Source: Ostreococcus lucimarinus (lineage: Eukaryota). From it: 64,000 nt of DNA. Made by a program: the position numbers and the translations under genes. The stretch lies in assembly GCA_000092065.1 (NCBI GenBank), contig CP000598.1; one strand, given 5' to 3'. The notes below the pieces were generated by a model, which searched no databases, was not told the DNA's origin, and saw only the letters and a list, made by a program, of their open reading frames with translations. Below, piece after piece: positions 10,697 to 64,000 of the stretch. Positions within the stretch are counted from its first letter, which is position 1. Every line of letters begins with the position of its first letter.

Positions 10697-11005
10697 GTCG
10701 AAAAGCTCATAATCACTGCGATTTACCCGAGTCTATGTGTATGAGCGTGCCGTTGTAAATCGAACGCGTCGCGGAGTGGAACGAGTATGCGAACGAGCGA
10801 AAGGCGCCCTCGTTTGCGCAGAAATTTCAAAATCGAGAGGCACGCCGCACTTGTTGACACGTGGTGTACTCTAAGACGAGTGGTGCTCACGATAACTCGA
10901 TGCGCTCTACTATGAAACTTTAACTTTGGATGCGCATTAAAGCTGCTGCGCGGATATGGCGTCGCGTGAAACAACGGAACGGGCGTTGATAGCACTTCGG
11001 TATAC

Positions 11006-31401: not shown

Positions 31402-31690
31402 CGCGCGCGGCGCGGAGTGCGCGTCGACGAGCCGAGCAAATGTCTCGCGCCGCGCCGCGCACGTTTTGTGTGCGTCCATCTCATCACGTGATTGTCTAGA
31501 AATTCGTAAAGTACGACACTTGCGACGTACAAGACGAACGGTGTTTTTATAAATTGTGGCGACGTTTTTCGCCCACCTGGGCCGCGGTGGGATATTTCGC
31601 GCCCGTCGCGCGCCGCGGTCGCGCGCTCGTTACGTACCGACGCGGTCGCAGACGAACGGGAATGTCGCAGACGAACGGGAAACGCGATGG
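31402..31690. repeat. Direct repeat copy 2. It contains the 5' region and start codon of the ColD-like fusion gene.
   Basis: See copy 1. The ATG at 31662 lies inside this repeat. Confidence 0.85.
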
Positions 31691-45235: not shown

Positions 45236-46300
45236 TTAGACTACATTTGAATACAGAAACGTCGACCCGATGACGAGCGCTATGCCGAGAGATGCCGTAA
45301 CGCTCAGGTTGTGTCCGTCGTTGGCGAACACCGTCGTCGCGAGGGCGCAATTACATATGGAAATAGACACGGCAAAGCATTTGAGCACGTTCCCCGCGTA
45401 TCGCAACACCGCCGCGACGACTAAACCACCGGCGGCTTGTAGCGCGATGACGAGCAACACGACGCTGTCGTATCCTTGAAACACGCTTTCGTTCGCGCGC
45501 AAGCGCTCTCCATCGCGCCACACTGATCCAATCAACGCCACTGGAAGTGAAAAGCACGCCAGTTGTGCGTTTCGGAACCATACCGATCGCTTTTGAGCGT
45601 CCACTTCTTTGTACATTTTCTCTAAATACGCCCCCGCGAAACCAGACGTAAACGCGGCGGTGAGCACGGCGACCATACCTCGCAGAGTGTCTTCCGGCCG
45701 CGCTCTATCCGACGGCACATTGCTCCGATGTCCTTCCTCGTTCTGTACCATGATCATCCCACACACGAGCACCAACAACGCTACATATTGTTTACGCGTG
45801 ATTCGCGTTCCCAGGAGCACGACGCTACAAATCGCGCTCGTGAGAATTTTGCTCTGCGAACACACCATGTATGCGGTCGGGCTCAGCAACCGCACGCCCT
45901 CGAAAAGGAGGTTGTTTTGTATCACGTACAGCACCGATGGGACCGCGAGCCGCGTCGCGTTGGATGGCACCTCGCGAAGCGCGTCCCGGGCGGCGCTTTG
46001 TCCGTCGGACGCGACCAACAAAATATAGCTCAAAACGAGTTTGACGAGCTCGGCGCTCGCGATGACTGTGGATACGACGTAAGGCGTCGCGGCTGTTCGA
46101 TACGAAAACTTCGTCATGAGCACCAAGGCGGTGTTTTGGATCGTCAAGATGAAAAGCGCCAGCGCTTGATGCTTTCGCGACGCTGACGAAGTGACTGGAA
46201 CGACGCCTGATGCACGCGTCGTGGTGTTTGCCTTTCGCTCCAGGTAAGGTGCCTGCATATGTCGATTCGCCAACGCTGTTTCGCTGAACGCAATACTCAA
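45236..46300 (-). CDS. Nucleotide-sugar transporter, SLC35A-like (UDP-Gal/UDP-GlcNAc/CMP-Sia type).
   Basis: 354 aa and polytopic. TSGFAGAYLEKMYKEVDAQKRSVWFRNAQLACFS matches the SLC35A signature LSGFAGVYFEK.LK.....S.W.RN.Q. Confidence 0.7.
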   Translation of the reverse strand: MSIAFSETALANRHMQAPYLERKANTTTRASGVVPVTSSASRKHQALALFILTIQNTALVLMTKFSYRTAATPYVVSTVIASAELVKLVLSYILLVASDGQSAARDALREVPSNATRLAVPSVLYVIQNNLLFEGVRLLSPTAYMVCSQSKILTSAICSVVLLGTRITRKQYVALLVLVCGMIMVQNEEGHRSNVPSDRARPEDTLRGMVAVLTAAFTSGFAGAYLEKMYKEVDAQKRSVWFRNAQLACFSLPVALIGSVWRDGERLRANESVFQGYDSVVLLVIALQAAGGLVVAAVLRYAGNVLKCFAVSISICNCALATTVFANDGHNLSVTASLGIALVIGSTFLYSNVV

Positions 46301-47242: not shown

Positions 47243-48436
47243 TTGTCGCACTCTGAGGCCCCGCGCACATTCGACAGACGTCGCTGTTTTGAAGCGATGC
47301 GAAACAAACGAAGGACGCGACGGCTTCGTATCACGGTGATTTCCATTACGCTGGCGTCATCCATGTCGTTCATCATGTACCGTAGTCTTTCGTCGTCGTC
47401 GTCGTCGTTGAAAACGCACCGTGACGACGTCTCGCCACTTGAACGTTCAATCGCTGACGTCGTGCGCGACTTAAAGGCTACGCGCGAGCGTGTGTTGCGC
47501 GATGTTTTAGCGACCGCAGTGAGTACGGATACGACGGATGCGCGAGAGGTCGAAAACAGTTCGCCGATCGCGGACGCGCTCGATCAAGCGAAGCGAATCA
47601 TCGAGAACTTTGACCGCGCTGGTCGCTCGAACGCCAGAGAGGATGAAGCCGAATCACTCGAGACGTTACGTAGTGTAGTCGAGAGCGTGAGTGATGTACA
47701 ACGTTTAGCGGCAAATCCGAATTCGCCGGTGGTGAGGCGCGCGAAGAAGCGTTCAGAGCTGTTCAACAGAATTCACGACGCAAATTTATGGGGCAGCGCG
47801 GAGTCGAGATCCGGGGGCGGTTCGACGAAAGCGACGACGAGTACCGCGGCGAGATGTATCGGCGAATGGATTCGAAAGTATGACATCAAGACTTTCTTGG
47901 ACTTGCCGTGCGGCGACGCGAATTGGCAAGCAGGCATCCCTGGGATTGAGAACGTAAGATACACTGGCATGGATATAAGCGTCGGCGCGCTCGAGACGGC
48001 GAAGACGCGCATGTCTGAGGTTCAAACCGATATCGACGATTTTCGCACGCATGATATCGTCGCGTTACCTATGCGCCAACGTTACGACGCCATCATGCAT
48101 CGCGACGTCGTGCAACACTTGTCTTACGAAGAAGCCCTGCGAGGTTTGTCCAATTTCGCGAAGAGCGGTTCGACGTACTTCATCGTCAGCACGCACCCGA
48201 AATCGACGGAGCGAGGCGTGGAATCGGACGTCGGTGTAGCGCGCGATATTGGATACACGTATCAAAACAACATGCAGTCGGAGCCATTCAACTTCCCGCC
48301 GCCGTTGGAAATGTGCGACAACTACGCGAACAACGACGCTTCAAAGATTGCGATTTGGAGAATCGCGGACCTTCCGAATTTCGAACGTAAGCTCGCGCAT
48401 ATTTCAACGCACGAAAGCGGCGCGCGAAAGATTTGA
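47243..48436 (+). CDS. Class I SAM-dependent methyltransferase, membrane anchored.
   Basis: 397 aa. TM ITVISITLASSMSFIMY. Motif I FLDLPCGDANW. Motif II YDAIMHRDVVQHL. Motif III FAKSGSTYFIVS. Confidence 0.6.
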   Translation: MSHSEAPRTFDRRRCFEAMRNKRRTRRLRITVISITLASSMSFIMYRSLSSSSSSLKTHRDDVSPLERSIADVVRDLKATRERVLRDVLATAVSTDTTDAREVENSSPIADALDQAKRIIENFDRAGRSNAREDEAESLETLRSVVESVSDVQRLAANPNSPVVRRAKKRSELFNRIHDANLWGSAESRSGGGSTKATTSTAARCIGEWIRKYDIKTFLDLPCGDANWQAGIPGIENVRYTGMDISVGALETAKTRMSEVQTDIDDFRTHDIVALPMRQRYDAIMHRDVVQHLSYEEALRGLSNFAKSGSTYFIVSTHPKSTERGVESDVGVARDIGYTYQNNMQSEPFNFPPPLEMCDNYANNDASKIAIWRIADLPNFERKLAHISTHESGARKI

Positions 48437-49260: not shown

Positions 49261-51159
49261 TGAACGATTGACGTGTCTCGCACCGAGCAAAATCCCCGAG
49301 GCTTGCTTGCGTCGCTTATAGGGAGTTGCTTCGTCGCACACACGCTGCGAAAAAAAAGCGTGTCATTATTAATTATTTTATTTCTGATGAGATCAACCTT
49401 GGCGTGCTCGAAGATCCATCGAGCCGCCTTTAATGCGGGTAGGATTGCTCGCGAAAATGTGGCGGTATCGATGTATGCGTCGCCGGCCGCAGCGGACCTC
49501 GCCGCGCCTAAGTAGACGAAACACTAACTGAAGAATAATTCCAATGAAAAAATTGCGAGGGGCATGGTCAAAACGCAACGTACGGGATTTGACGATGCTC
49601 AAGAGTCTCGATTCATTGGGTGGGGCTAATCATTACGACATATGTCGAACCGCGTAGCGTTCTAACGTCGCCTCTTTGCGTTCAAAGTGTATGGAGGAAT
49701 TCAAAATAATTTTGCATTCAGTAAAATAAACCAGTGTAATTCGTGAAAACTAAAATCTGCAAGAATCGAGCGACGGGCGCGAATTACGACTGCTGGCTCC
49801 TCACATCGATCCAGATGATGACGTTGGTTGTCTGCAAACAGCGATGAAACCAACTTCGCGTCGAGTGCGTGCCGCAAATAATTAATATTTAAAATAAATA
49901 TTTAAAATAAATTACAATGAATTCCCTCGGATTGGTGATGTTGTTCGCTTTAACGCACGTTCAAACACTCGAGCGTCATCCTCGCCTCGTGCACTCCTTC
50001 GTGACGCTCAATTGGCTGTCTATGTGCCACACCACGGTCACTCTACCTGTCTAACTTTGACGAACAGCGCGTTGAAGACGTGCGTAATTATTTAATTAGT
50101 ATTTGTTTTCAGGAAATAAATTTTGCGGCAGACAATGGTGACCTTAATCTCACACGTTAGCGACCTGTAGACGCCGACCTCGTTAATCTTATCCGTTTAC
50201 GCGAAAATGGCTTCTTTCTGCACAACCATCTGCGTATTTTGGAATTATTTCACGTCGATTGCTTACATAAATATTTCAAAGACGGCCTCGTTTTCGTGGT
50301 CGCGGAGTGCGTCGATGTCGATTCTCCGGCACAATTACCCTGCCACGCTTCTGCACTTCGCGCGCTGATACTGATGAGCGCGACGACGGCGTCGTTCGAA
50401 TTCGAGACGCCAGTCGGTCGGTTTCAAGCCGCGCGGCGCAGCGACAAAAGTTAGAACAGAGCGAACGTCCACGCGCTCGCGTTTTGCGCACGACGAGGCG
50501 TTCGTGCGTCAATGTCACCCATCAAGCGTCGCGCGACGCGCGATGAGATTAGTGGCGCGTCGTGTGGGAACACGGACGAGCGAACCAATTCTCGTGACGG
50601 GGGTGTCTTCGTCTCCGGCGATGATGACTGTCGCACGCCAGATTCGGATTTTCGCACGCCTGGTTCAACGTTCGCCGGTGTTTATATAAGGGGGGTTGTC
50701 ACGCAGACCGCCAATGTCTCAGTAGTGGCGTGTGTATGCACATCGAACAATGGTGTCTTTCAGTGATGGCGTGTGTATTTTTGTAATGTATGTTTCCGTG
50801 ATGGCGTGTGTATTTTGCAATATATCAGTACTAAGTATATATTACTTTCCACGCCCTAATGTATGGGGTGTTAGCACTTCTCGATCGCCACGCGCGCGCG
50901 CTTGGCTTTTGCATGTGAAATTTCGCGAGTCATCACTCGAGAATAAGTACACCGCACGCACCGATTCTCGCGTCTTAAGTCCGCGCCGTCGCCGAGATAT
51001 CAGTCGATGTTGAGCTCATTTTTTTGTGGGCGACGACGCGAGGTAGCACTCGGTGACGCAAAACGCGAGCGCGGTCGATTTGCGGCGTGGTATTACATTG
51101 TCATCTACTGTTCAATTCCTAGTTTGTCATTTCGCTATCTTTTCGTACATTTGTTTCGT

Positions 51160-51381
51160 CTAGTTTTCTTCGTCGCTCGGGACGTCATCATCTTCATCGT
51201 CTTCGTCGTCATTTTCGTCGGCAGCGCCGCTCGCATTCACGGGCCGCCCTGGAAGCTCCTGGTCGGAGTCGGGGTAGAATTCGGGATGGTGCACGGAGAG
51301 GTACTCCAAGCATTCATCTTTGATCGCCTGCTTTCTGTCACCTTGCCTCGGTCGCTTGTTCGTCGCGACGCCGTAAATCAC
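51160..51381 (-). CDS. Small ORF (73 aa) with a strongly acidic C-terminal tail. Possibly an exon or a small acidic protein.
   Basis: GC3-rich codon usage in an otherwise AT-richer intergenic region. Tail ENDDEDDEDDDVPSDEEN. No family recognised. Confidence 0.25.
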   Translation of the reverse strand: MIYGVATNKRPRQGDRKQAIKDECLEYLSVHHPEFYPDSDQELPGRPVNASGAADENDDEDDEDDDVPSDEEN

Positions 51382-51722
51382 CCTCCGCGATCCTCAACTA
51401 GTAGCATCATCAGTTAATACCATCAAACTGAAGTTATTTTTATGAACACGATATCGATAGTTTGTCCAGACGGACGAGATGTAAATCAATGAAACTGAGA
51501 CCGTGTCTCGAGCAGAGACACTAATCGCCGTGTGAGACAACACCGATCAACGTGATGTCGCAACATCAGTTTATTACCTTCGCGAACTGACGAGTAAAAT
51601 TCACCAGTGATGAATGTGGTCTTCAGCAGCCGCCCGCTTTAGGATTTTGACTCCTTTGTGGTCTAACGTCAATGTAATATCAAGATGGGTTCCGGTTGAC
51701 TACTGAAACCACCTGCGGTGAA

Positions 51723-52814
51723 TTACACGATTACATTGATATGTTTCGCCAGTTCAACGGCATACTCATAGAGTTCTACGTCGTATTTGAACTTTTGATA
51801 TAAAGCTGCCTGAACTTGTACATCGCCTTGATAAAAATCCTCGTCCTTCACACTACGTAGAGTATTGTTTGAGCTACGACTCGAATCAATCGTGAAGTTG
51901 GTAACACCAAGATTTTGAAAGAACACGCGCAAATCCTGATCGTATGTTTCTCTGACCAATATTGCGCTGAAGTGTCGTAATCGTTCTTTCGCGGTTTCAA
52001 GAAGAAGGGCCATTATTTCATCTCTAGTCATCGTCGCTAGTTGCGTGGTGTTCTTCAATGATGTCGCTGTCGCTATCGATTGTATGTCATCAGTTCTTGT
52101 TATGCCAGTCAAAGAAAATATTATATGCCCTGGTACGCTTTCACGATGTGTGTCCATGAGGAGGTTTTCTCTGAATGAATGCGATGCCAGTCTAGCCGCA
52201 TAGCTTGTCGCAGACAGCTCGGAAATTTGCTGCGCTGTATACCCGCTCTTTCTGAAATAGTTGACGTTATGCGCGATATGACTGTTATACATGTCGTATG
52301 GATGTCGAATAGCGGTGGCGTACACCCAAGGACGTTCAGTGCTTGTGTTGAAATGAGGTGACATAGGGTGCTCCATCCCAAAAAATTCAACTCGTCGTCC
52401 CCCGGTAGTCAACTCAGAGAACAAATCCTGCTGCTGTTCGAAGTCACCGTAGGCACGCGCGTCAGGTCCGCAGGTTGGTGAGGTCACTAACTCACAGTTA
52501 CAACTCCGGTTTCCGCGCACTCCTGCTCCTGACGCATCCATGGAGCTGCACAGCGTTGTCCCACCAGCCTTCTTCAAGTGCACAAAATATACTACACTCT
52601 GTCCCTGGCGCGTTCTGAACCGCCTAACAGCATCAATATCACTTCGCTCGTATTCCGTCGGGATGACGTGCTTTGCAACTCGTTTTACCAGATCATCACC
52701 AGAGTTTCGCAAGTATATCGATGAGCCCCACGTGGCGATTAAACACCCTATGACGAAGATTCGCGCTTGCATACGTCGTTCACGGTGGTTCGAAAACGAA
52801 ATAGTTGCATCCAA
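51723..52814 (-). CDS. Carbohydrate sulfotransferase (Sulfotransfer_2/3 type, Golgi type II membrane protein).
   Basis: 363 aa. TM IFVIGCLIATWGSSIY. VVYFVHLKKAGGTT is the 5'-PSB motif (F.H.PKTGGTT). RHPYDMYNS is the 3'-PB motif (RdP.dR..S.y). Confidence 0.6.
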   Translation of the reverse strand: MDATISFSNHRERRMQARIFVIGCLIATWGSSIYLRNSGDDLVKRVAKHVIPTEYERSDIDAVRRFRTRQGQSVVYFVHLKKAGGTTLCSSMDASGAGVRGNRSCNCELVTSPTCGPDARAYGDFEQQQDLFSELTTGGRRVEFFGMEHPMSPHFNTSTERPWVYATAIRHPYDMYNSHIAHNVNYFRKSGYTAQQISELSATSYAARLASHSFRENLLMDTHRESVPGHIIFSLTGITRTDDIQSIATATSLKNTTQLATMTRDEIMALLLETAKERLRHFSAILVRETYDQDLRVFFQNLGVTNFTIDSSRSSNNTLRSVKDEDFYQGDVQVQAALYQKFKYDVELYEYAVELAKHINVIV

Positions 52815-53023
52815 GTTTGTTCATGTCGTAGCGCGTCACTACACACCGCGCGCGTCCGGGTGACGCTGATTGGCGCGGGAAGCGGCCGTGGCAGCCTATG
52901 AGAAACCTTGGGTATAAGTCGCGATGGTTGCCGCGGAACTGGCTAAATCCAGCCTTGTTTTTTGGGGTGGGGTAAAACGACCAATCGTGACTCAATATCC
53001 GTTTATATATTTAGTGCACACTT

Positions 53024-53196
53024 TGCGAGCTATACCTTATATGATGGTGAGCAATCGGGCCTAGTGCGTCGATAAGTGATGATAATTACAATCAGTTGTG
53101 GTTAGTTCATTAATGAGTGTTAACTCGTCAATTAGTCCCGCTAGGTTACTAGGGGAAGCTACTATATTTCATATTTTACTCTTCAGATTTCTAACA
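53024..53196 (-). repeat. 3' LTR (in element orientation) of the copia element.
   Basis: Identical to 58579-58751. Confidence 0.9.
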
Positions 53197-53213
53197 CACC
53201 TCCTTAGCTTTCT

Positions 53214-56200
53214 CTAGTCTGAGGGCTTACCAATACCTTTGAAAGGTTGGATTTCCTCACTTTCGACCTTCTCGAGATATTCTTGAAATGTGTGCAGAGC
53301 GTCACTCTTCACCATACCTTCACTCAACCTCTGGTTGATGAAGTCTCGTATGTCCTTCGAAGATATATGACTTAACATCACGTTGAAGTGATTAGAACAC
53401 TCGTGAACGTCTGCTGGACCTGAAAAGTTCTTCTTGTTCGGCAATATCTTTGTCAACATATCGGCTAAGTTGTGTGATGATCCTATGTTAAATGGCTGTA
53501 TAATCCCTTCTCTGTGAGCATAATGTTGGATCCAGGAGTATCTTATTTCCATATGCTTGTTTGACTTAGACGACATAGTTTCCATTGCCTGTCGAATGGC
53601 TGTCGTATTATCGCAGAAGAGTGGTACTCTTGACAGTTTAAATCCAAGCTCTCGAAACAACAAAATTTGAAAGAATAAATCTTTCGCGGCTTCATACATT
53701 GCCATGAACTCTGCTTGCGCTGAACTCGTGGCTGGTATTCCTTGCAGTTTGCTCTTCCAATTGGTAGGGCCGCATGAAAAAGATATATACCCCGATGTGG
53801 ATTTTCTTCCGCATCTATCTTTCGAATTTAAGGATAACTTTTGGCCTGCCCAATCCGAGTCTGTAAATCCTGCAAGTCTCACTATACCATTGCATTCAGC
53901 ACCGTTGTAGGTTAATGGAATATTGGGGTTCCTCTTGAGATATCCAACCGCTCTGCATAAAGCGCTAAATTGCTTATGCGTTGGGTTACTTGCTACCCTT
54001 CCAGCTAGACTGCATACCACAGCAAGATCTGGTCGAGTAGCAGTATTAAACCAATTCAGACTTCCCAGCACTTGTTGATATGTTGTCCGCTTCATCCTGT
54101 CTACTGCATCTGTGTCATCCTCCTTGGCGAGAACAAACGTATCTGATGGTAGTAATGGCGAATTGCAAGCATTGATATCTTGCACAGGACATTTTGCCAG
54201 AAACTGCGCAATTGAATATTCTTGGTTGAGTGTGTAACAATTCTTCCCTAATCTCTTTATATGGATGCCGTTGTACACCTTTATCCTTTCAAATTGCGAA
54301 ACTTTGTAAATTCTGGAAAATTCTTTGTGGAACTGCTTGACAACCTCATCGTTCTCAGCGGTTATCAGAAGATCATCTACCAATACTGAAATGATCATGA
54401 AGGGCTTGCTATTGCTCATCTTAACAAACAAACAGCTATCCTTACATAATTGGTTCAAACCCAGAGACCTTAGAGTCTTGGTTACATGCAAATACCAACA
54501 CCGTCCCGCTTGCTTTGTGCCATACAAGGGTCTGCGTAACTTGTAGACCATTCCTTTCGGAAGCGGATGTGACCTTGGGGCCTTGACGTATATATCATCT
54601 AGGAGTTCCCCTTGCGTGTAAGCTTGGGATACATCTATCGTAAAGATGTCCCATCCTAATATCGCCGCCAAGTTTATGAGTATCCTAAATGTGGTCATGG
54701 AAGCAACGGCACTAAATGTGTCGTGGTAGTCCTTCAACCAAACTTGGGTGAATCCTTGCACTACCAATCTAGACTTAAGGGAACCATCTGGTTTTACCTT
54801 ATCTACCCATTTGGATCCACAAATATTTGCATCTCCGGCTTCAACAATACTGACCTCCATTAATGTGGTTTCGAGCAATCCATTGAGCTCTTTTGCTCTG
54901 CTCTCTGAGAAATCCACACTTGACTCATCAATAATTTTACCGTATTCTTCGCCTTTTGCGACGGCTGTGGCTAGCACACTGTGTGCTGCCCTATTTGTCG
55001 AATCAGCGTTATTTAGCGCAGGATTCAATTTTACCGTTTTATCGCCGTAACTCCCGCCCTGGAGCTGGATATGCGAATACTTACATGTGAGGTAGATAAC
55101 CTGTTTCTTGAGCTCATCCTCAGAAACTCTACCATTCTCTTTGAAGTGGTTAACGAGATGTTCAATATCGTCAGTCGGTTGATCAGTCCCAACATCAGCA
55201 TTGTTCTCTGCGTCAACACCTCCTTCAACTTCTTCAAGGATCTCTGGAGAAAACCCGCTAGGCCCCCAGCCTGGATACTTATCCTGAAGGCTACTCTGGT
55301 CCATCCTTGTCCGTTCCCTCGCAAATTCGAGAAAATCCTCGACTAGACCAGCATTGGCGTTATTGAGCGCCGGAACTACATCGCTAGCGTTATTGAGCGC
55401 TGAGCCAGCGTTATTTAGCGCTGCTTCGGCGTTATTGAGCGCCGGAAATGGTTCGCTAGCGTTATTGAGCGCTGAGCCAGCGTTATTTAGCGCTGCTTCT
55501 CCCCCGGACTGCGGATAATCCTCGTCAAGATCGTCATCTTCGCAATCACTTTCAGATTTGTATCCTTGGTCCTCCTTTTGAGAATCCAACAAATCATTCA
55601 ACCAATCGTCCAGGTCACGGCGGTCGGAAAGCTCCGGTGGGAGGATAACAAGCTCCGGTGGGAGGATACTATTGTCGGTTAGCTCTGTTCGGTCTCCTGT
55701 TAATCCAGGATGCTCCCCATTCTGTGCATTCACCGACCCAGCGTTATTGAGCGCCGGTCTATTTACATAATTTTCATGGTCGAAGATCAACTCCGACGTT
55801 TCTTGAACATAACCTGGTGCTGATCCTTGGCGTTTCAGGATGCTGTTGGACAAAACCACAACATATTTCTTCGGGTGCAAAGTTACACTAGAGTAACCTA
55901 TGAACCACACTGGAAATCTACTCACACACCAATCCGGCCTTGAAGCCGGGTGCTGATTACTCAAATTTTGAGCAATCACATTCCGCGCCATATACGCCTT
56001 ACAACCAAATGGATGTAAGACTTGGATATCCACACCGTGTCCAAAAACTTCATAATACGGAGATTGCAACTTATTGTGCACTTTGACTCCAGTTATATTT
56101 CTTACTGTGGCGGCGTACTTCATGGCATATACCCAAAACTCACTCGGCACGCCACTTGCTATCAAGAGCTTTTTGGCGATTATCTTGAGTGCTTGATTCG

Positions 56201-57212
56201 TCCTTTCTGCTACGCCATTTTGCCACGGATGTCCTACATCACTCTTGGAAAATACCATTCCATGATCATCACAGAATTTTCCAAATGTAGACTTGATATC
56301 GCCACCACCATCGGAGTGTATCCGCTTGAGTCGAATTTCTCCATCTTGATGGTATCTTCTGCGGTGGTCTTGTATTAACGCTAGATCGCGCTTAAATTCC
56401 TTAAGCGCATGTGTCAGTGACCTTTCCTCAACGGTGGACGGCCGATTGCTCTCTACGGGGTAGACCAGCTGGAATCTGGTATACTCATCTGTAACGGTCA
56501 AACATGCCTTTTGATCTACAATCTTACAAACCATAGAACCTCTTGGCGGTCCGAAAGTCACGTCCATGTGGACAATTTCAAACGGTTTTGTACATCGCTT
56601 GGTACTCCTCTTACCGTGATTCGTTTGTCTTGTATGACCTATCTTGCATGTGACGCAATTATCGGCAGCATTATTCAACTTTGCTTGTAGCTCGTCCAGA
56701 GGTTTGTCACTTGTTATCCAACTATTGTTGAATGCAGTAAGTAATGTATTACTTGACACATGGCCAAGTGTATCATGTATTAACGTCGGTATCCAGAATA
56801 TGGGCCGTTTTGACGATATATCTATCACCGGCAATCCATCGTGACGTCGACGAACATTAACATCATGATATTTTCCATCTTCATCTGGTAATTTGATACT
56901 TCCGCCGGAGTCATTTAGGCTAATCGGGTAACCTGTGCATGATAATATTCCGGCTCCTGGAAGATCGGCTCCAGGGGCACAGTTTGCCTCGAAATGGAAT
57001 TCAAAATGTTTTCCTTCCGTGTCAACTAGATCAACCTTTGCAACTCCTGATTTGGTCACTACCGTAGTGCCGTTGATAGAGGTCAAGATTTCGTTTCCTC
57101 GAGACTTCACGTTGTGCAACTTTAGTGCATCATTTATTACACTCACACACGCTCCACTGTCGACCAGTAAAGTATTTTTGTTGCCTAGATGATATGTCTC
57201 GAGGATTATCGG
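53214..57212 (-). CDS. Copia Pol (protease, integrase, RT, RNaseH), in the same reading frame as gag directly downstream of the gag TGA.
   Basis: Translation immediately after the gag stop reads PIILETYHLGNKNTLLVDSGACVSVINDA... (protease DSGA). Integrase has HDTLGHV...CVTCKIGK and D..E. RT has YVDDLLI-like VLVDDLLITA. The C-terminus ends KGIGKPSD. Confidence 0.85.
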   Translation of the reverse strand, partial: PIILETYHLGNKNTLLVDSGACVSVINDALKLHNVKSRGNEILTSINGTTVVTKSGVAKVDLVDTEGKHFEFHFEANCAPGADLPGAGILSCTGYPISLNDSGGSIKLPDEDGKYHDVNVRRRHDGLPVIDISSKRPIFWIPTLIHDTLGHVSSNTLLTAFNNSWITSDKPLDELQAKLNNAADNCVTCKIGHTRQTNHGKRSTKRCTKPFEIVHMDVTFGPPRGSMVCKIVDQKACLTVTDEYTRFQLVYPVESNRPSTVEERSLTHALKEFKRDLALIQDHRRRYHQDGEIRLKRIHSDGGGDIKSTFGKFCDDHGMVFSKSDVGHPWQNGVAERTNQALKIIAKKLLIASGVPSEFWVYAMKYAATVRNITGVKVHNKLQSPYYEVFGHGVDIQVLHPFGCKAYMARNVIAQNLSNQHPASRPDWCVSRFPVWFIGYSSVTLHPKKYVVVLSNSILKRQGSAPGYVQETSELIFDHENYVNRPALNNAGSVNAQNGEHPGLTGDRTELTDNSILPPELVILPPELSDRRDLDDWLNDLLDSQKEDQGYKSESDCEDDDLDEDYPQSGGEAALNNAGSALNNASEPFPALNNAEAALNNAGSALNNASDVVPALNNANAGLVEDFLEFARERTRMDQSSLQDKYPGWGPSGFSPEILEEVEGGVDAENNADVGTDQPTDDIEHLVNHFKENGRVSEDELKKQVIYLTCKYSHIQLQGGSYGDKTVKLNPALNNADSTNRAAHSVLATAVAKGEEYGKIIDESSVDFSESRAKELNGLLETTLMEVSIVEAGDANICGSKWVDKVKPDGSLKSRLVVQGFTQVWLKDYHDTFSAVASMTTFRILINLAAILGWDIFTIDVSQAYTQGELLDDIYVKAPRSHPLPKGMVYKLRRPLYGTKQAGRCWYLHVTKTLRSLGLNQLCKDSCLFVKMSNSKPFMIISVLVDDLLITAENDEVVKQFHKEFSRIYKVSQFERIKVYNGIHIKRLGKNCYTLNQEYSIAQFLAKCPVQDINACNSPLLPSDTFVLAKEDDTDAVDRMKRTTYQQVLGSLNWFNTATRPDLAVVCSLAGRVASNPTHKQFSALCRAVGYLKRNPNIPLTYNGAECNGIVRLAGFTDSDWAGQKLSLNSKDRCGRKSTSGYISFSCGPTNWKSKLQGIPATSSAQAEFMAMYEAAKDLFFQILLFRELGFKLSRVPLFCDNTTAIRQAMETMSSKSNKHMEIRYSWIQHYAHREGIIQPFNIGSSHNLADMLTKILPNKKNFSGPADVHECSNHFNVMLSHISSKDIRDFINQRLSEGMVKSDALHTFQEYLEKVESEEIQPFKGIGKPSD

Positions 57213-57215
57213 TCA

Positions 57216-58391
57216 CTCGTCTTTCTCTTTTGGATCAGACTCGTTCCCTCTTGGTTTCTTATTGGCAAACTTGTCTACCCGCCGCTGCAGATCAGGACGT
57301 AACGGCGATTTACACTCCCAATACCTGTGACCTTTCCTGTTACAGTTGAAGCAAGCTCCTTTCGGCTGAAACTTCTTCCGCTTCAGATTATTCACAGCAA
57401 GCTGTTTAGGTGATGTCTCCTGATCGAGTTTATCAGCTATAACAAGCTTATTCGTGCATTTGGTAAAGTCCAGTTTGTCGCGCTGCTGGGAAAGTAACTC
57501 CTCACACACCTTTTTGACATTCGTTCGAGACAGCGGAGACGCCAACAACATAACGAGTATTGTTTCGGTGAAACCACTGAATTCGATCGTTTCCGAAGTG
57601 GTGAGTTCGTTCCCATTTATCGTGAACGCAGATTGAACCTGCCGACGCAACCTCAGCCCGTTGTTGAGTCTAACTTGACTATCATTTGGGAGGGAAGTAA
57701 ACAATTTTCTTTTGTTACCCAAGAATTCCGCCATGTTTCCGGATCCAGTGTACTTTATGTCATTTAACCGATTCTCTACGAGAGTTTGGATCGTTGAGTA
57801 AGGGTCTAATTCCAGAAGTAATCTGTCTAACAAAGTAATCCCCGACCAAGTCGCTCTTGACGCTCTCATGTCGCTTACGAGCTTCTTGAGTTGTTCAGGA
57901 AATACATTTGATAAATCAAAAACGCCGTCAGCCAGTTCTTGATCCGCAACATCGAGCGGTACCAATGTCCTATCCGGATGTAACTTCTCATAGTCTTTCA
58001 CTGTAACACGATTATTCTCAGCGTTAGCAGGTGGTAACCCCGGGAGTCCGTTGGAATCCCTTTCATCCTGCATTACGTTGTAAACGTATTTACACAAATC
58101 GATGTTATCACGGAATGTAATATCCAGCGAAGCTACGATTGCGGTGATCCTGCAAAGATCCATATTGGCATTTTTATACTTTGCATCAATGTAGTGGCGC
58201 AACAGCTTATCCGCAGCGATCGACACACTGACGGCCTCCGTTTTCCTTCTTCCGTTGATTTTAGAAGATGTAAACCTGTAGTTCAAAGATTGAACCATTA
58301 AATCTATAAATTCGACTACGTTGTCGCCTTGAACACCGCTCTTGAAACGCGTGAACGACGCCAGGTCCGTTGGTAGGAACGCTTCCGACAT
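57216..58391 (-). CDS. Copia Gag with CCHC zinc knuckle.
   Basis: 391 aa. The C-terminal CFNCNRKGHRYWECK is a CX2CX4HX4C motif. It ends at TGA 57213-57215. Confidence 0.85.
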
Positions 58392-58578
58392 CTTGCTTTG
58401 GTTAAGCGTTTTAAGGCGTTACTAAATTTAGAATCTTCTAAAAATAGAACGATTCGCTCTAAAAATAGAACGACTCTTTACAAACCGATCGAGGCGCAAA
58501 AGGCACTCTTCCGATTGACACTAATCGTAGGTCCACGCTAGCGTGCTGCACGTCGTCGCAGATGGCAGAATCGTACGA

Positions 58579-58751
58579 TGCGAGCTATACCTTATATGAT
58601 GGTGAGCAATCGGGCCTAGTGCGTCGATAAGTGATGATAATTACAATCAGTTGTGGTTAGTTCATTAATGAGTGTTAACTCGTCAATTAGTCCCGCTAGG
58701 TTACTAGGGGAAGCTACTATATTTCATATTTTACTCTTCAGATTTCTAACA
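58579..58751 (-). repeat. 5' LTR (in element orientation) of the copia element.
   Basis: Identical to 53024-53196. Confidence 0.9.
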
Positions 58752-60842
58752 CACTTCGACTATGTATCACGAATGCGGATCCTCGCACTTGAGAAACCTC
58801 GGATTTATACGTCGCGATGGGTGTCGTGCGTGAGAAACCTTGGGTTTATAAGTCGCAATAGATGTCGTGCGTGCTTGGCTTGTCTGATGCTGATTCATAC
58901 GCGCTAAGTCTATATGTAGGTCTAGTTCGTGTACAAGTAGTGTAGACATGCACGTCAGCAACAAAAAACTCCGCCGGTGCATTTGGCTTGAAAAAGTTCG
59001 AGCTCTATCACTAGATGCGACCTACCAATGATCACACCGTTCGTGTTCCTCTTAACCAACTTTGCTTGTGTGCTTCTCTGTCGGATATCTTGTCATTCTT
59101 GACCTTCTCGAAATTTGTCTCTATCCAATCCATGATCCACTTGCCCCACTCATGAATATGGCGACTCCAGACGTCGACTTCATTCCAAGATCTGATTTTC
59201 CAGGAAATAATTCTTCATTTACAAAGTTCGAATCACTAAACGCTGCCGGACATATACTCGAGTCCTTCCTGAAGTACAGTTCTACGACTTAAAATGTTCG
59301 TCAAATCAAGATTCGATACAAAGTGCGCAAATTCCGAATCGTCCAGAAGGCTGCGGCATAGATTTGTTTTTGCAACGTAAAAACGGCTTGAAAACTATCG
59401 GCCTTGAGAAATCTCAAGACAATGTCAATGTTGGCACACGTCAGCTCATCGGCGCTCACACACTCACTAAGCGCGATCATGCCGAGTCTGCAAACAGTGT
59501 TGTAAGTCTGGCTATCATATTTGTATTTGCTTACTGCGCTCTTTTCATTTTAAAGAGGATGCCGAAGCGGATTTAAAGTTGGCCACGTTGAGAGGCTCAG
59601 ATAAGAGCATGTATTATTAGCTTGTATTCTTGATAAGCCTTTCCGGATAGAATGCGTGACGAGTTACGACTCAACTGCAACTGTGAACATCAATCGAAAC
59701 TGAAAGTTCAGAAGTTGTGACCGCTCGCTGGAAAATTGACCCACTACCGACGGTGACAGTCGCCGTGGCGAATTGTTTTTGTTTGGGCACTGCGCAGACG
59801 AAATCGAGAATTTTGGCGATATGAGGTGAGGACTATGCGAGGCGGGGGGAGAGTCTACGCGGTCTTGGTCCCAGTGGCATTCCTTCCTAGCCGACTGCGT
59901 CTCTGTAGGAACGTTTCGCCGTCGATGAGCTACACCAGAAGTATCGCGACGGCATATCGCGACGATGGGCGCCGCCGCCTAGGCGCGGGAAGTCTGATCC
60001 CGGCTACGAAAGATATAAGACCCACCCCGCGTTACGAAAGTCTTGATACAGTGTATGGTTTTTCATAGTGCAGTGCAACGAACGTGTCGAATACGATGAC
60101 GCGTGAAATGAAGGGGAAACGACGACCAAACGGGGTTCCACAGCGCGCAGGGTTCGTGCGTATTTCGCGCGCGGCGTCTTGTCGGCGTGCTCATCCATCG
60201 CGACGAAAGTGGGCGAGGCCGATGCACGTTGGCTTTTACACGTTCTGCGCGTCGTTCGCCGATCCGGCGTGGGGACGCGGTTCTCGCGCGCGCGTCGCGC
60301 GTCGCGCGCGCCGCGAAGGCGACGACGACGACGATCGCGCTTCCGAGACCCTCGTCGCGCGTCTCCGCGCGCGTCGCGTCGCGTGCGGTTCGCGCGACGC
60401 GTCGCGCGCGCGCGACTGGGCTCGTTCGGTGCGTTGCGCCGCCGCGGTGCGGTGGCGGCGCGCGCGACCGCGCGGGCGCGCGTTTCAGTGATGGCGTGCG
60501 TGATTGCATAACGCCCGTTTCAGTGATGGCGTGTGTGTCTGTTGCGATGATGGTATATATGGCTCGTTTCGAAGTAAAATATGTATATTAGATCGTATTA
60601 TGATACATTTAAGTCTATCTGTGTGATCCATGGATACATTTTCGTTCGATTGATTTTTTCGGTCGCGAAAGCGCGCGGTCGCCGGGTCAACCAACACCTT
60701 CATCTCCGGGGGGGATCGAAGATTGTTTTTTACGGTCGCGCGCGCGGTCGCCGCGGACGCCCCCGCCCTCGTCGACGCCGCGCTGACTGTCGCGCGCTGA
60801 CTGACGCGCGCTGACTGACGCGCGCGCGATCGAACGCCGCGA

Positions 60843-61538
60843 GTGGGGAAAGGCGAACGCGCGACGTCGTCGCGCGCGCCCCCGCGCGTCCCGGAGCGAA
60901 CCGCGCGTCGTCGTCGTCGCCGTCGCCGTCGCGCGCGTACGCTTCGGAACGCGAAAATCGTTTTTCGTCGCGGGGGGACTGCGGTGCGGGTCGTCTCACA
61001 CTTCGGGACGCCGACGATGGTGTCGTCCGGCGACGCCGACGTCGACGACGCGGTCGAACGACGCCATCGGCGCGGTCGCGGTCGCGCCGTTCACGATCTT
61101 CTGCCGTCGTCCTCGACGGCGCCAGCGCGCGCAGCGGCAGATCTCGCGGCGATTCAAAAAACCGATACGATCGACGATCGCGCCAACGCGAAACGCGCGC
61201 GAACAGCGACGGCGTCGCCCGACGAGAGTTCCCCTCCCATGATTTCGTTCGACGATATGTTCATCGATGCGCTCGACGGCTTCACGACGTACACCGAGGC
61301 GAAAACGAACACCGTCCCGCCGGTTGAAGCAGCAACCGGTCGAGGCGCGCTCCCGAGGCGGTTTTGCAAGAGCTGTCGGAAAGCGCTCGACGTGTTTCGT
61401 GATTTCGACGGGGAGCTGAAGACGTGTCGACTGTGTTTGCGCGTGCGCAAGAAGGACGCGAAACGCAAACGCGCGCTACGGCGGGCGGACGCGAAAAGGT
61501 CGGGCGACGGCGACGGTAAAAAAGGCGCGGCTTCGTAG
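60843..61538 (+). CDS. Hypothetical basic protein with a C-terminal CxxC...CxxC motif. Low confidence.
   Basis: 231-aa ORF. The N-terminus is inside GC-rich low-complexity sequence. The C-terminal segment RFCKSCRKALDVFRDFDGELKTCRLCLRVRKKDAKRKRA looks less repetitive. No family recognised. Confidence 0.2.
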   Translation: MGKGERATSSRAPPRVPERTARRRRRRRRRARTLRNAKIVFRRGGTAVRVVSHFGTPTMVSSGDADVDDAVERRHRRGRGRAVHDLLPSSSTAPARAAADLAAIQKTDTIDDRANAKRARTATASPDESSPPMISFDDMFIDALDGFTTYTEAKTNTVPPVEAATGRGALPRRFCKSCRKALDVFRDFDGELKTCRLCLRVRKKDAKRKRALRRADAKRSGDGDGKKGAAS

Positions 61539-61629
61539 AGAAGCTGAACGCAGGGAACGACGACGAGTCGCGGATGCGCGCGAAACGATCGATCTTTGAT
61601 TCGACGCGCCTTCGGTATAGTAGTGTGTT

Positions 61630-62292
61630 TTGCTCTGTAGCGACACGGCGATTGGGGTCAGGCTCAACGCGCTGGAGTCGGCGAAGACGGCGCTCGAGCA
61701 AGTGGACGTGGACGTGCGCGCGCTCATCGGTGCGCTGAACGCGACGGACACGGTGATGCGCGCGACAAATGCTGAGTTGAAGACACGGTTGGATGCTTTG
61801 AATACCACGGACGTAGAGATGAAAGCCAAAGACACCGAGTTGAGCGGGCGAATTGATGCCTTGAACGCCACGGATACAGAATTGAAGACCGCGGATGCGT
61901 TGCTGGGGAGCAGAATTGATGCCCTGAATACGACAGACGCGGCGTTGAAAGCCGAGGATGCGAATCTGTCGAACAGAATCGACATCCTGAACGCCACCGA
62001 CGCTGTACTGAAGGGCGTGGACGACGGCTTGTCGAGCCGCATCGACGCCCTGACGAACATTTACGTCAACGAGCTCAATCTCACGGACGAGCAGCTCATC
62101 GTCACCGACGCGACGCTTGGCTCGCGCATCGACAGGTTGAACGAGACGCAGTACGAGCTCAAGGGCATGGACGCGGGTTTATCGATTCGAATCGACGCGC
62201 TCGACGACTCGAAAGCCGAGCTGCAGCGCGTGGATACCGAAGTCGCCGCGGTCATAGCGTCTTTGAACACCATGGGTGAGGAGCTCAAGTAG
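61630..62292 (+). CDS. Tandem-repeat protein with 21-aa (63-nt) repeats of the form RIDALN[AT]TD.ELK..D..L.S, each carrying an N-x-T sequon.
   Basis: At least 7 consecutive units visible in the translation (RLDALNTTDVEMKAKDTELSG / RIDALNATDTELKTADALLGS / RIDALNTTDAALKAEDANLSN / RIDILNATDAVLKGVDDGLSS ...). The same repeat type opens the gene at 63079->64000. Confidence 0.55.
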   Translation: MLCSDTAIGVRLNALESAKTALEQVDVDVRALIGALNATDTVMRATNAELKTRLDALNTTDVEMKAKDTELSGRIDALNATDTELKTADALLGSRIDALNTTDAALKAEDANLSNRIDILNATDAVLKGVDDGLSSRIDALTNIYVNELNLTDEQLIVTDATLGSRIDRLNETQYELKGMDAGLSIRIDALDDSKAELQRVDTEVAAVIASLNTMGEELK

Positions 62293-62321
62293 CTATTTTT
62301 TTCGAAAACACGAGTACTACT

Positions 62322-62546
62322 ATGGCTACTATCTCTACTCCAACTGGCCGCGAAGCCGCGTGGACCGAGCGACTGGAGTCCGTCAGGAAGGATGTCGAGC
62401 GATGTTTTGGTCACTTGAAGAAGCGCTTTCAGATACTTCGCTTGCCATCTAGCGTGATATCGTTCGCCCAGATCGTGTGTCTCCTAAGGTTGAGTCAAGC
62501 CTTCGTGAGGACTAACGGCGCCGTCAGTGGTCGGGGCGTCGGTTAA
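62322..62546 (+). pseudogene. C-terminal fragment of a PIF/Harbinger (DDE_Tnp_4) transposase.
   Basis: RLESVRKDVERCFGHLKKRFQILRLPS matches the characteristic Harbinger C-terminal motif R..VE.aFG.LK.RWRIL. Only about 60 aa are present. Confidence 0.5.
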
Positions 62547-63078
62547 TTCAATGTCTCTGTCTTCTTCGTGTGCGCTATTGTCCACAAAGGCGCGCGTCGC
62601 AATGCGCGCCAGCACCACGCGCCCGGCGTCATCAAGCGCCCGCCCAACGTATTCAACGCTTGTGTGAGGGCTAGCCGCATTTTAACGTCGCACGCTTGCG
62701 ACGTTAACTCGGTTTGTTCCGCAACTTCGAGGTGGTTGTGTATGACTCGGAGGCGCGCGACGCCGTTTTCGCTGCGCCTTCTGATGTGCGCATGCTGTGC
62801 GCTCGCGATAATTCAATCTCATATTGCTTACAGCCTTCGGACCAGGCATTTCCTTCTCTTTTACCTTGTGACAAAGAAGTGGATGAATCAGTGAATACTG
62901 GTATGCTCTGATACTTGAAACCCATGGTCGGGTAATTCTATGTCTCTGTCTTCTTCTTGTTCACATCCAACGTATTCGACACTTGTGCGACAACGAGCGG
63001 AGTAAAAATTTGGCTAAATTCCTGGGCAAATACACACGAATGCACACTGGGCGACTCTAGCGGCGCGGCGTGATCAAA

Positions 63079-64000
63079 TCACCAATACGTTCCGTCGACA
63101 GAGCTCTCAAAAGAGGTGATCGCCACCACGGCGCTGTATGCCCCATTACCGAGGACGAAAACGAACCGATACTCGCCACCATTTGATACACTGAAAACAA
63201 CACTGCTCGCGTCAGATCCGTGCGCGAAGATTTTCGTCCAAGATGATGTCGAACTCTCCAAGTACACATCGCATGAATCGTCAAAAATCAGAGACATAGT
63301 GTAAGAACCACTCGCCAAGGCGTACCAGCCAGAAATTGTGATCCAATTGTTGTTTGTGCCGTAAAAAGAATCGCCCGACGGTCCGCACGCATCGATCCAG
63401 CAGTGCCAGTGATTGCAAAATCCAGTGTTGAACGTTCGATCGGGCTCGTCTTTCTCCAAACACGGTTGACCGTCGATCGTCTCCCATCCGAGACCAATTG
63501 ACCCCGAAGTCTTTGAGTACGCCATGCCCACCTCTCGCCATGCACCCTCGCCACATTGTGTGTAATCGGAGACCCATGTGGAGGCGGCACACGTAGCGCT
63601 GAAAGAAAAGACTCGTTCTTTGACGACAGTTTCCGAAGGACGGCTGCTCCCTGAATATGAAGGTGAACGGTACCACACGTCACTGGATGACGGTCTTCCG
63701 CTTTGCGTCGTTTGACTCACCTGATTAGGACTCGGTGGCGGCGGACTCGGTGGCGGACTCGGCGGCGGGCTCGGCGGCGTCTCGCACGTTTCTCCCGACC
63801 AAGAGCCGGCACACACGCATGTCCACTGCGTGCCGTCGTACTGCAACTTTTCGCCTCCGGGAGGTATACATTTTGGTGGTAAAGTGCTGTTTGAAAGCGC
63901 GTCCACGCGCGCGAGAAGCTCGTTGATTCTGCTCAGCAACGCCGTTTCGTTCGCCTTGAGTTCGGCGTTCGTGGCGTTGAGCGCGTCCAGTCTGCTCGTC
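63079..64000 (-). CDS. Partial gene; the N-terminus lies beyond the window. Order: NxT-containing coiled-coil repeats, a Cys-rich segment, a PSPPPSPPPSPPPPSP linker, and a Trp/Cys-rich C-terminal domain (possible carbohydrate-binding or adhesion domain).
   Basis: The minus-strand translation of 63940-64000 gives SRLDALNATNAELKANETALLSRINELLARVDALSNST, the same repeat family as 61630-62292. Then CIPPGGEKLQYDGTQWTCVCAGSWSGETCE, an extensin-like SPPP run, and a 200-aa domain with GFCNHWHCWIDACG. Confidence 0.55.
   Translation of the reverse strand, partial: TSRLDALNATNAELKANETALLSRINELLARVDALSNSTLPPKCIPPGGEKLQYDGTQWTCVCAGSWSGETCETPPSPPPSPPPSPPPPSPNQVSQTTQSGRPSSSDVWYRSPSYSGSSRPSETVVKERVFSFSATCAASTWVSDYTQCGEGAWREVGMAYSKTSGSIGLGWETIDGQPCLEKDEPDRTFNTGFCNHWHCWIDACGPSGDSFYGTNNNWITISGWYALASGSYTMSLIFDDSCDVYLESSTSSWTKIFAHGSDASSVVFSVSNGGEYRFVFVLGNGAYSAVVAITSFESSVDGTYW

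Follow-up and report, generated by a model that had tools for sequence, protein, structure and literature searches.

We analyzed a 64,000-nucleotide stretch of contig CP000598.1 from Ostreococcus lucimarinus (assembly GCA_000092065.1) – hereafter the window – which carries two facing open reading frames (ORFs) at positions 61630–64000. One ORF lies on the plus strand (61630–62292) and the other on the minus strand (63079–64000). An earlier note, made from the sequence alone, described them as a convergent pair of genes that encode 21-residue tandem repeats with an N-x-T glycosylation sequon in each repeat. Translation reproduced both ORFs at these coordinates, and their facing arrangement stands. 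The pair, however, is most likely one gene and one relic rather than two genes: the minus-strand ORF holds the 3′ portion of a complete gene from a modular protein family, here called the head-stalk family, and the plus-strand ORF is a fragment from the middle of a stalk.

The minus-strand frame is open from position 64000 to a stop codon at 63079–63081 and contributes 921 nt of a second exon whose 5′ start lies past the window end. Its translation runs from two stalk units through a four-cysteine module (LPPKCIPPGGEKLQYDGTQWTCVCAGSWSGETCE) and a proline-rich linker (TPPSPPPSPPPSPPPPSP) to a 215-aa terminal domain, confirming the continuation into a Cys-rich module, an SPPP linker and a Trp/Cys-rich domain that had been read from the letters. 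The end of the stalk (TSRLDALNATNAELKANETALL SRINELLARVDALSNST) occupies 63883–64000, the cysteine module 63781–63882, the linker 63727–63780, and the C-terminal domain 63082–63726. The earlier note had suggested consulting flanking sequence for the full gene, and two metagenome contigs supplied it. The first (L010) is 99.8% identical to 61442–64000 (2559 nt) and adds 490 nt to the gene, and the second (L002) is 99.6% identical. Only about two units of the stalk proved to lie in the window. The complete exon 2 encodes 413 aa, comprising a head (PVAHDSTLKRVTVANDDGDVYVESVGTDAEIVLKTQKVRVDGDVYC), five stalk units, the cysteine module, the linker, and the terminal domain, and is preceded by a signal-peptide exon and a 113-nt intron. 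Positions 1040–1076 of L002, at the contig end, are Illumina adapter (..ATCTCGTATGCCGTCTTCTGCT), and the C-terminal residues of its called protein, P0001, are thus artefactual.

As completed by these contigs, the gene carries the family signature: a signal peptide ending in QRW, a phase-0 intron, and a conserved head of ~50 aa with the pattern PV..D.TL.RVT..N.DGDVYVE..G..E.V.K..KVRV.GDVY. About 30 distinct family loci share an upstream exon, an intron of 56–156 nt that begins GT[AG]CG, a [CT]AG acceptor, and then the head. In the family, exon 1 encodes a hydrophobic signal peptide that ends [AG]-x-[AG]|QRW; prokaryote-style gene calls set a GTG start at the head and miss this exon. The signal peptide that the earlier note proposed to look for thus resides in a separate first exon. 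Its splicing to exon 2 is proven for the family by the MMETSP0937 transcript P0051, which joins both exons exactly (...ALARAQRW-PVAHDADLGRVT...). Because the signal-peptide exon is spliced to the head, family products are expected to be targeted to the endoplasmic reticulum (ER).

The plus-strand ORF (61630–62292) contains 220 codons and about ten heptad-repeat units, and it lacks an ATG start, a signal peptide, a head, a cysteine module, and a C-terminal domain. Its listed start is a TTG with two in-frame stops just upstream, and its first ATG is codon 43 (61756). The ORF start aligns inside a stalk unit of the intact paralogue L045 (..NDTALGVRVSALEAAKNALEQVDVDVRQLIGSLNATD.. there, SDTAIGVRLNALESAKTALEQVDVDVRALIGALNATD in the window), and the order of its units is mosaic relative to L045. 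A tblastn search over the window found no head near the ORF or elsewhere, and the sequence upstream of the ORF has no similarity to family exon 1 or to the family intron. The earlier suspicion that this copy is truncated is borne out by these observations.

The 3′ end of the ORF is cut as well. At 62263–62292 (plus strand), ..IASLN passes into TMGEELK and a stop, where the intact paralogues P0015 and L045 continue ASLNATD... At another locus, L003, a signal peptide, a head, and three units are joined to the same tail. L003 is 99% identical to the window over 62190–62326, which includes the tail and 34 nt downstream, and ~70% identical upstream; this drop places a recombination breakpoint near 62190. 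Beginning 30 nt after the ORF, we identified a C-terminal remnant of a PIF/Harbinger DDE transposase on the same strand (62322–62450; Plant_tran E 3.6e-6, 27.2 bits with a cut-off of 22; DDE_Tnp_4 E 3.6e-5), which covers profile positions 135–185 of 205 (~50 residues, about a quarter) rather than the full domain. The ORF would then be pieced together from internal stalk units, truncated on either side and fused at its 3′ end to a Harbinger transposase tail. Because it lacks an ATG start, a signal peptide, a head, and the C-terminal modules, and because a transposase remnant adjoins it, the ORF is most likely a gene relic.

We consider it unlikely that the plus-strand ORF is instead a functional gene, expressed from ATG 61756 or spliced to an upstream exon (for example, from ORF 60843–61538) to yield a stalk-only partner or regulator of full-length members. 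A pyrimidine-rich, acceptor-like site (...TTTTGCTCTGTAG) does lie at 61628–61640, but the CTGAC branch motif of family introns is missing, as are a head, exon 1, and the family intron upstream. The 220 codons are uninterrupted – free of the stops that the earlier note had raised as grounds for doubting the repeat array – but they open without an ATG, immediately after two stops, and are flanked by the transposase remnant. The arrangement is unchanged in a natural population (L010), and L003 shares the 3′ truncation in a gene whose signal peptide and head are intact. The ratio of nonsynonymous to synonymous substitution rates (dN/dS) is 0.2–0.4 in comparisons with relatives, but these values probably reflect mostly the history before truncation: L003 differs at a single position in the segment that it shares with the ORF (99% identity), which therefore says nothing about constraint since. 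Were a stalk-only product made from ATG 61756 or from a chimeric transcript, it would not be secreted or N-glycosylated. Since it has no route into the ER, the relic as it stands cannot, judging by its translation, be an acceptor for N-glycosylation.

The spacer between the two ORFs contains two pairs of direct repeats, 62538–62571/62927–62960 (91% identity, spacing 389 nt) and 62644–62667/62967–62990 (88%, spacing 323 nt), which suggests a partial duplication or a small repeated element.

We next describe the stalk repeat itself. Residue identity within the plus-strand ORF peaks at lags of 21 (0.38) and 42 (0.33), with values of 0.18–0.22 at lags 7, 14, 28, and 35 and a background of ~0.05; from these peaks, the repeat unit is three heptads (21 residues). 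Four canonical units with the consensus R-I-D-A-L-N-[AT]-T-D-x-E-L-K-x-x-D-x-x-L-S-[SG] lie at 61786–62037 (plus strand) with a 63-nt spacing. Tandem Repeats Finder, which the earlier note had recommended, detected no 63-nt array in 60000–64000; the repeat is visible at the protein level or with permissive seeding, which recovers the 63-nt spacing at 61–76% identity. Five canonical units are ~58% identical to one another at the DNA level, and their third codon positions agree in 44%, yet R1, D3, L5, N6, T8, K13, D16, and L19 are invariant among them despite synonymous codon changes. This combination indicates that the repeat is old and has been maintained by selection on the protein. Across the family, where both 14- and 21-residue units occur, 49 distinct units give the consensus R-[IL]-D-A-L-N-[AT]-T-D-x-E-L-K-x-x-D-x-x-L-S-[SG], with R1 conserved in 84%, L5 in 96%, N6 in 86%, T8 in 90%, L12 in 92%, D16 in 88%, and L19 in 94%.

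The repeats had been called heptad-like and predicted to be coiled coil, which agrees with the clear lag-7 periodicity and with an AlphaFold2 (AF2) monomer model of the window stalk, a continuous helix with a predicted local distance difference test score (pLDDT) of 90–94 over residues 2–36. A single-sequence AF2 model of the 306-aa fragment was poor outside this helix, and a Pfam search of both ORFs returned only sub-threshold coiled-coil noise. The only consistent heptad register places Leu 5, 12, and 19 at position d (Leu in 92–96% of units). The a positions are Ile/Leu/Val (residue 2), Asp/Gln/Asn (residue 9), and Asp (residue 16), which makes a third of the core polar; a conserved Asp at two a positions out of three would make the repeat an unusual natural coiled coil. 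Polar residues make up as much as 57% of the core in natural stalks (PMC13580157). With R1 at g and D3 at b, each 21-residue unit also contains one R(g)-x-D motif, which acts between chains in trimeric coiled coils (PMC13580157). We infer that the stalk is a parallel, probably trimeric coiled coil.

Sequons are strongly enriched in the repeat. The plus-strand ORF has eight N-x-[ST] sequons, compared with 2.1 ± 1.3 in composition-preserving shuffles, of which 1 in 5000 reached eight. Seven are in register, at unit positions 6–8, across about ten units. The claim of a sequon in every unit does not hold: residues 11–31, 187–207, and 208–220 have none (the unit at 137–165 contains an 8-aa insertion). 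In the minus-strand gene, the window includes NAT (63970–63978), NET (63943–63951), and NST (63883–63891), and the full stalk of ~130 residues has five sequons, with none in the 269 residues C-terminal to it. Of the 49 family units, 41 carry a sequon in register. The middle residue of these sequons varies freely (A, T, V, S, E), with no case of Pro, and the third is T rather than S in every case. Because the products enter the ER and because the sequons cluster in the stalk, with none in the 269 residues that follow it, N-glycosylation of the stalk in the minus-strand gene and its family is plausible.

Judged from the sequence, these features fit a used sequon and a structural polar motif equally well. 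In the structural reading, N-x-T is a feature of the helical repeat – a polar e/g layer around an Asp-rich core, or a T-D-x-E capping box with A/L staple residues – and the proteins are plain coiled-coil rods that are glycosylated sporadically or not at all. A specific side-chain role would suit the threonine found at the third position of all 41 in-register units, and the positions of N (e) and T (g) next to the core; the free but never-Pro middle position speaks against it. N6 and T8 show no more conservation than R1, D3, K13, and D16, but in the minus-strand gene the sequons are concentrated in the stalk of a product that enters the secretory pathway. Known proteins offer examples of both kinds: some trimeric stalks have conserved polar motifs (N-T, R-x-D) and no glycosylation (PMC13580157), and sequon-bearing coiled-coil stalks occur in the heavily N-glycosylated SlaB (PMC10903991). 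The DUF285 repeats found in some family members carry a conserved W-[ND]-[VT]-S motif that is also present in bacteria, as a structural role for such motifs would allow. We regard the structural reading as possible though doubtful.

The stalk leads into a connector resembling epidermal growth factor (EGF) domains, with the pattern LPPKC..PPGG.KLQYDG..W.CVC..SWSGETCE. It contains four cysteines (C-x15-C-x-C-x8-C) rather than the six of the EGF pattern, and the window protein has no Pfam EGF match; the sole Pfam signal for the module is EGF_DL_JAG in the paralogue L031, at 19.7 bits and below the cut-off of 27. The module is common to proteins with other N- and C-terminal domains (45–79% identity). 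The linker that follows, TPPSPPPSPPPSPPPPSP, is extensin-like, with Ser-Pro3-4 motifs encoded in part by a 12-nt tandem repeat (63737–63779, Tandem Repeats Finder). Repeated Ser-Pro3-5 motifs in a protein that bears a signal peptide are a hallmark of extensins and hydroxyproline-rich glycoproteins (HRGPs), and this feature is present; Tyr cross-link motifs and an extended SPn body are absent from the linker, which has 18 residues and no Tyr. Linker length varies in the family, being about three times as long in L049 as in the otherwise identical L050.

The C-terminal domain contains seven Cys and ten Trp residues. It has no Pfam match, PA14 (PF07691) being absent at E<=1, and a profile of its alignment found nothing among PDB sequences at E<=10. 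Among 1.84 billion representatives we found 14 relatives, including P0029, in which the domain follows the same cysteine module, and P0019, in which it follows a discoidin-like region. Giant bacterial Big_5 repeat proteins were discounted as relatives, their matches being compositional or limited to short stretches. An AF2 model from a 9-sequence alignment reached a pLDDT of 70.8 and a predicted template modelling score of 0.76. The best-modelled part of the predicted jelly roll, which resembles those of PA14 and galactose-binding domains, is the last ~90 residues, with strands from residue 125 of the 213-residue query. The top Foldseek matches of the model are PA14 lectins and the Flo/Epa adhesins (E 2e-4, a moderate match); PA14 and GLEYA proteins are also among the matches from viral models. 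An [FC]-D-D-S motif is kept in the window protein and in four of the five homologues that cover the column, and is a candidate equivalent of the DcisD calcium/sugar-binding motif. From the model, we read the domain as a carbohydrate-binding-type jelly roll with a PA14-like fold that is not a PA14 member by sequence.

The head defines a larger family than searches with other parts of the locus had suggested. A head profile recovered at least 55 loci in metagenomes and 26 protein clusters, whereas searches with the whole fragment gave few matches and those with the plus-strand ORF gave five. All members share the head. The stalk ranges from no units, with the head running straight into ..PPKC, to about 12; the cysteine module is usual and is followed by a PPSPPP linker of variable length. 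The C-terminal tails differ, and by Pfam comprise DUF285 with FG-GAP_2, FG-GAP_2 alone, Kelch with DUF7495, Laminin_G_3, unassigned regions, and domains of the type found in the window. Head, stalk, and cysteine module in L011–L013 are 96–99% identical to those of the minus-strand gene, with exactly two units (42 aa) fewer and entirely different tails. Homogenized arrays are found in L007 (63 nt, 8.5 copies at 95%) and L049 (42 nt, 3.2 copies at 97%). The expectation that repeat number would be polymorphic was thus well founded. Frameshifts in the L007 array (10174–10708) may be long-read errors.

At three loci (L009, L033, and L042), no other gene lies between a family member and a TTTAGGG telomere array, and the member is transcribed toward the chromosome end. 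The arrays lie in the last 300 nt of L009, 3061–3137 of L033, and 6327–6389 of L042, and the gap between gene and array is ~0.3–0.4 kb in L033 and L042 and less than 1 kb in L009. We kept the telomere claim to these three loci with actual TTTAGGG arrays, as a position at a contig end could by itself be an assembly artefact. L049 and L052 share the Cyt-b5 and SIR2 neighbours of L009. Other neighbours of family members are housekeeping genes, so that the proximity to glycosylation genes is a feature of this window that does not extend to the family. The idea that the repeat proteins are substrates of the adjacent glycosylation machinery accordingly fails as a family property, with other members lying beside housekeeping genes at ordinary chromosome ends. 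The alternative in the earlier note, a cell-surface adhesin, would fit the lectin-like and propeller-type C-terminal domains.

These tails also bear on what the proteins might be for. Rods of Ser-Pro3-4 with globular ends resemble chlorophyte HRGPs, and the family could instead comprise structural extracellular-matrix or gamete-recognition (agglutinin-like) glycoproteins, with tails that serve self-assembly or mating-type recognition rather than acting as lectin adhesins or virus-interaction molecules. Ostreococcus, however, is wall-less, and the linker is short (18 aa) and without Tyr cross-link motifs. Extensin-like proteins have been reported in Ostreococcus (PMC4769139), a prolyl-4-hydroxylase-like gene adjoins L018, and no membrane anchor is present; the tails, on the other hand, are typical ligand-binding modules. 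We think a matrix or gamete role rather unlikely, and it overlaps with the adhesin-like reading except in biological role. The gene near L018 (971–2377) has 2OG-FeII_Oxy_3 and ShK domains and lies ~0.8 kb upstream of a member with a long PPSPPP linker.

Viral fibres, too, combine an invariant N-terminal module with a coiled-coil shaft and interchangeable distal domains, and the family might be thought to encode fibre or receptor-binding proteins of an endogenous giant virus or other mobile element. The head profile, however, found no relatives in 2.9 million viral contigs or in prokaryote genomes, and on this ground we rejected a viral or bacterial origin of the family. The weak PHROG matches (E 2e-7 to 1e-3; unknown and tail-fibre families) are limited to the low-complexity coiled coil. 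L007 lies near DUF5906, DUF5763, and ankyrin genes, but the family has a spliceosomal intron, an ER signal peptide, and housekeeping neighbours, leaving a viral source highly improbable. The contig that carries L007 is 1.74 Mb long, and its surroundings may be a virus-like or mobile region.

The head has no Pfam, PDB, or PHROG counterpart, and hhalign gave no significant match between the head and the alternative N-terminus of P0002. No annotated protein from the O. tauri or O. lucimarinus proteomes matched the head profile; matches came from ENA/JGI metagenomes, one 'src'-labelled source, and one MMETSP transcript from Ostreococcus sp. RCC789, the sole taxon-labelled relative. The family may be clade-restricted, or it may be mis-annotated owing to its exon 1/intron structure. 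We found no description of the head, the 21-residue unit, or the family architecture in profile libraries or the literature. We accordingly rate the family as previously undescribed and of a kind already known, modular secreted adhesin-like glycoproteins.

On balance, we consider it probable that the minus-strand ORF represents the 3′ portion of a complete nuclear gene, from a clade-D-like Ostreococcus, for a secreted, rod-shaped modular protein and that the plus-strand ORF is a relic. Exon 1, past the window, would encode a cleavable signal peptide ending A-x-A|QRW, followed by the phase-0 intron. The beta-rich head of ~50 aa, the family signature, may serve as an assembly or attachment module. 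It would be followed by an alpha-helical stalk of 14- or 21-residue heptad units, the four-cysteine EGF-like knot, the Ser-Pro3-4 polyproline linker, and a PA14/galactose-binding-like jelly roll that may bind carbohydrate. Because the chain would enter the ER, the N-x-T sites of the stalk would be available to oligosaccharyltransferase and the SPPP linker to O-glycosylation of hydroxyproline. The mature product would most likely be a glycosylated stalk that presents a lectin-like tip. At the level of the family, a constant head and stalk, exchanged binding domains, and members at telomere ends point to recombination-driven diversification of an extracellular recognition repertoire.

Several observations weigh against parts of this account. 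The transcript that demonstrates splicing comes from P0051 and not from the minus-strand gene itself, whose signal peptide, if begun at the upstream ATG, would have an N-region that is rich in Arg and unusually long. The product has no transmembrane segment or glycosylphosphatidylinositol (GPI)-like tail, which leaves retention at a surface unexplained. Asp/Asn/Gln at two of the three a positions is unusual and makes the oligomer state uncertain. N6 and T8 flank the core at e and g, where a glycan could clash with tight packing, and their conservation does not exceed that of L5 and L19 or of the four polar positions named above (R1, D3, K13, and D16). Finally, the dN/dS values of the plus-strand ORF do not themselves demonstrate decay since truncation.

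In function, the closest parallels to the minus-strand gene would be yeast PA14 adhesins, type II lectin receptors, trimeric autotransporter stalks, and SlaB, and it is a member of none of these groups. Fungal PA14 adhesins (Flo1, Flo5, Epa1, and Cea1) and the PA14 domain of a Marinomonas RTX adhesin similarly place a lectin-type jelly roll on a glycosylated tandem-repeat stalk of variable repeat number and belong to telomere-near multigene families; the FLO and EPA genes are subtelomeric. Here, in contrast, the lectin-like domain is C-terminal (the order is reversed), the stalk is an alpha-helical heptad repeat rather than Ser/Thr-rich, there is no GPI signal or Pfam PA14 match, and the fold match is moderate. 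Type II C-type lectin receptors have an N-proximal anchoring end, an oligomerizing helical neck of about three-heptad units with N-glycan sites, and a C-terminal carbohydrate-binding head, much as the minus-strand gene would; their necks, too, are variable, with 21-residue repeats in CD23 and 23-residue repeats of polymorphic number in DC-SIGN and L-SIGN. They share no homology with the minus-strand gene, which differs in having a cleavable signal peptide rather than a signal anchor, another lectin fold, and extra EGF-like and SPPP modules.

Trimeric autotransporter adhesin stalks are likewise fibrous head-stalk proteins with a repetitive, polar-core coiled coil and R(g)-x-D motifs (PMC13580157). 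They are bacterial, have polar layers formed mainly by N at d, are not N-glycosylated, and show no sequence homology to the minus-strand gene; their C-terminal 12-stranded beta-barrel anchor has no equivalent in this eukaryotic, intron-bearing gene with its modelled soluble jelly roll, so the likeness is an analogy only. SlaB of Sulfolobus acidocaldarius (PDB 8QOX) is a heavily N-glycosylated surface protein whose trimeric coiled-coil stalk has repeated LN[ST][ST] sequons (PMC10903991); it is archaeal, with a C-terminal membrane anchor and N-terminal beta-sandwich domains. The stalk matches SlaB weakly (E 0.03 over 87 residues), a compositional similarity that is not evidence of homology. Chlorophyte HRGPs and chimeric extensins, such as the Chlamydomonas agglutinins and pherophorins, are secreted and have globular domains connected by rods of Ser-Pro3-4; here SPPP forms only a short linker without Tyr cross-link motifs, and the main shaft is a coiled coil. 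DUF285 and FG-GAP modules on a chromosome type linked to virus resistance also occur in the 'cell surface repeat lipoprotein' genes of O. tauri chromosome 19 (PMC5082852) and in differentially expressed FG-GAP/integrin-like genes of the small outlier chromosome (SOC) of O. mediterraneus (bioRxiv 10.64898/2026.02.10.705097). By module content, these genes probably overlap with the head-stalk family, though the head, the 21-residue stalk, and the modular family are not described there.

The wider window places the locus on a chromosome of this type. Positions 1–148 are 21 perfect copies of the telomere repeat CCCTAAA, so the window is a chromosome end (its terminal 64 kb). Between 6000 and 49000 lies a dense cluster of sugar-nucleotide and glycosylation genes, which encode a UDP-GlcNAc 2-epimerase (15523–17895), a DegT aminotransferase–epimerase fusion (31554–33908), a dehydratase/epimerase (36260–37450), two GT61 enzymes (11006–12247 and 39281–40858), a GT90 enzyme (26028–27245), a CAP59-type transferase (43600–45117), a nucleotide-sugar transporter (45236–46300), and a methyltransferase (47243–48436). 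The window also contains GDP-mannose-dehydratase-like genes. The window matches the published Ostreococcus SOC, a glycosylation-gene-rich chromosome whose rearrangement and re-expression accompany the switch of Ostreococcus and its relatives between virus-susceptible and virus-resistant states (PMC5082852, PMC13390643).

This setting makes the family a source of concrete, testable candidates for the surface molecules that outlier-chromosome enzymes decorate and viruses bind. The candidates would be secreted, sequon-dense, and SPPP-bearing, with lectin-like, integrin-like, or BspA-like tips and a conserved head usable for antibodies or tags. Telomere adjacency, domain swapping, change in unit number, and relics near transposons are typical of contingency and surface-variation families in yeasts and parasites. 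In a bolder version, which we put forward as a long shot, the family would be a variable, telomere-associated, cassette-swapping glycosylated coat of Ostreococcus that includes attachment or decoy targets of prasinoviruses, and SOC glycosyltransferases would remodel the glycans of stalk and linker to switch between susceptible and resistant states.

Three further regions of the window were noted. ORF 8978–9199 (plus strand; ..NWDVSAVDDTRDLF..) encodes a short DUF285-like remnant similar to the DUF285 tails in the family (E 2e-7) and is probably another relic of a family-type gene. A Ty1/copia-type polyprotein with RVT_2 and rve domains is encoded on the minus strand (ORF 53214–57146) within a low-GC (0.44–0.49), A-poor block at 50000–60000; the ORFs that flank it (51723–52814 and 57213–58391) have no Pfam match. 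Upstream of the plus-strand relic, CG-rich, microsatellite-like tracts and a 14-nt tandem repeat (3.6 copies) occur at 60284–60531 and 60774–60825, within a 62%-GC stretch, and downstream of them ORF 60843–61538 (231 aa) shows a weak SBP-like zinc-finger match.

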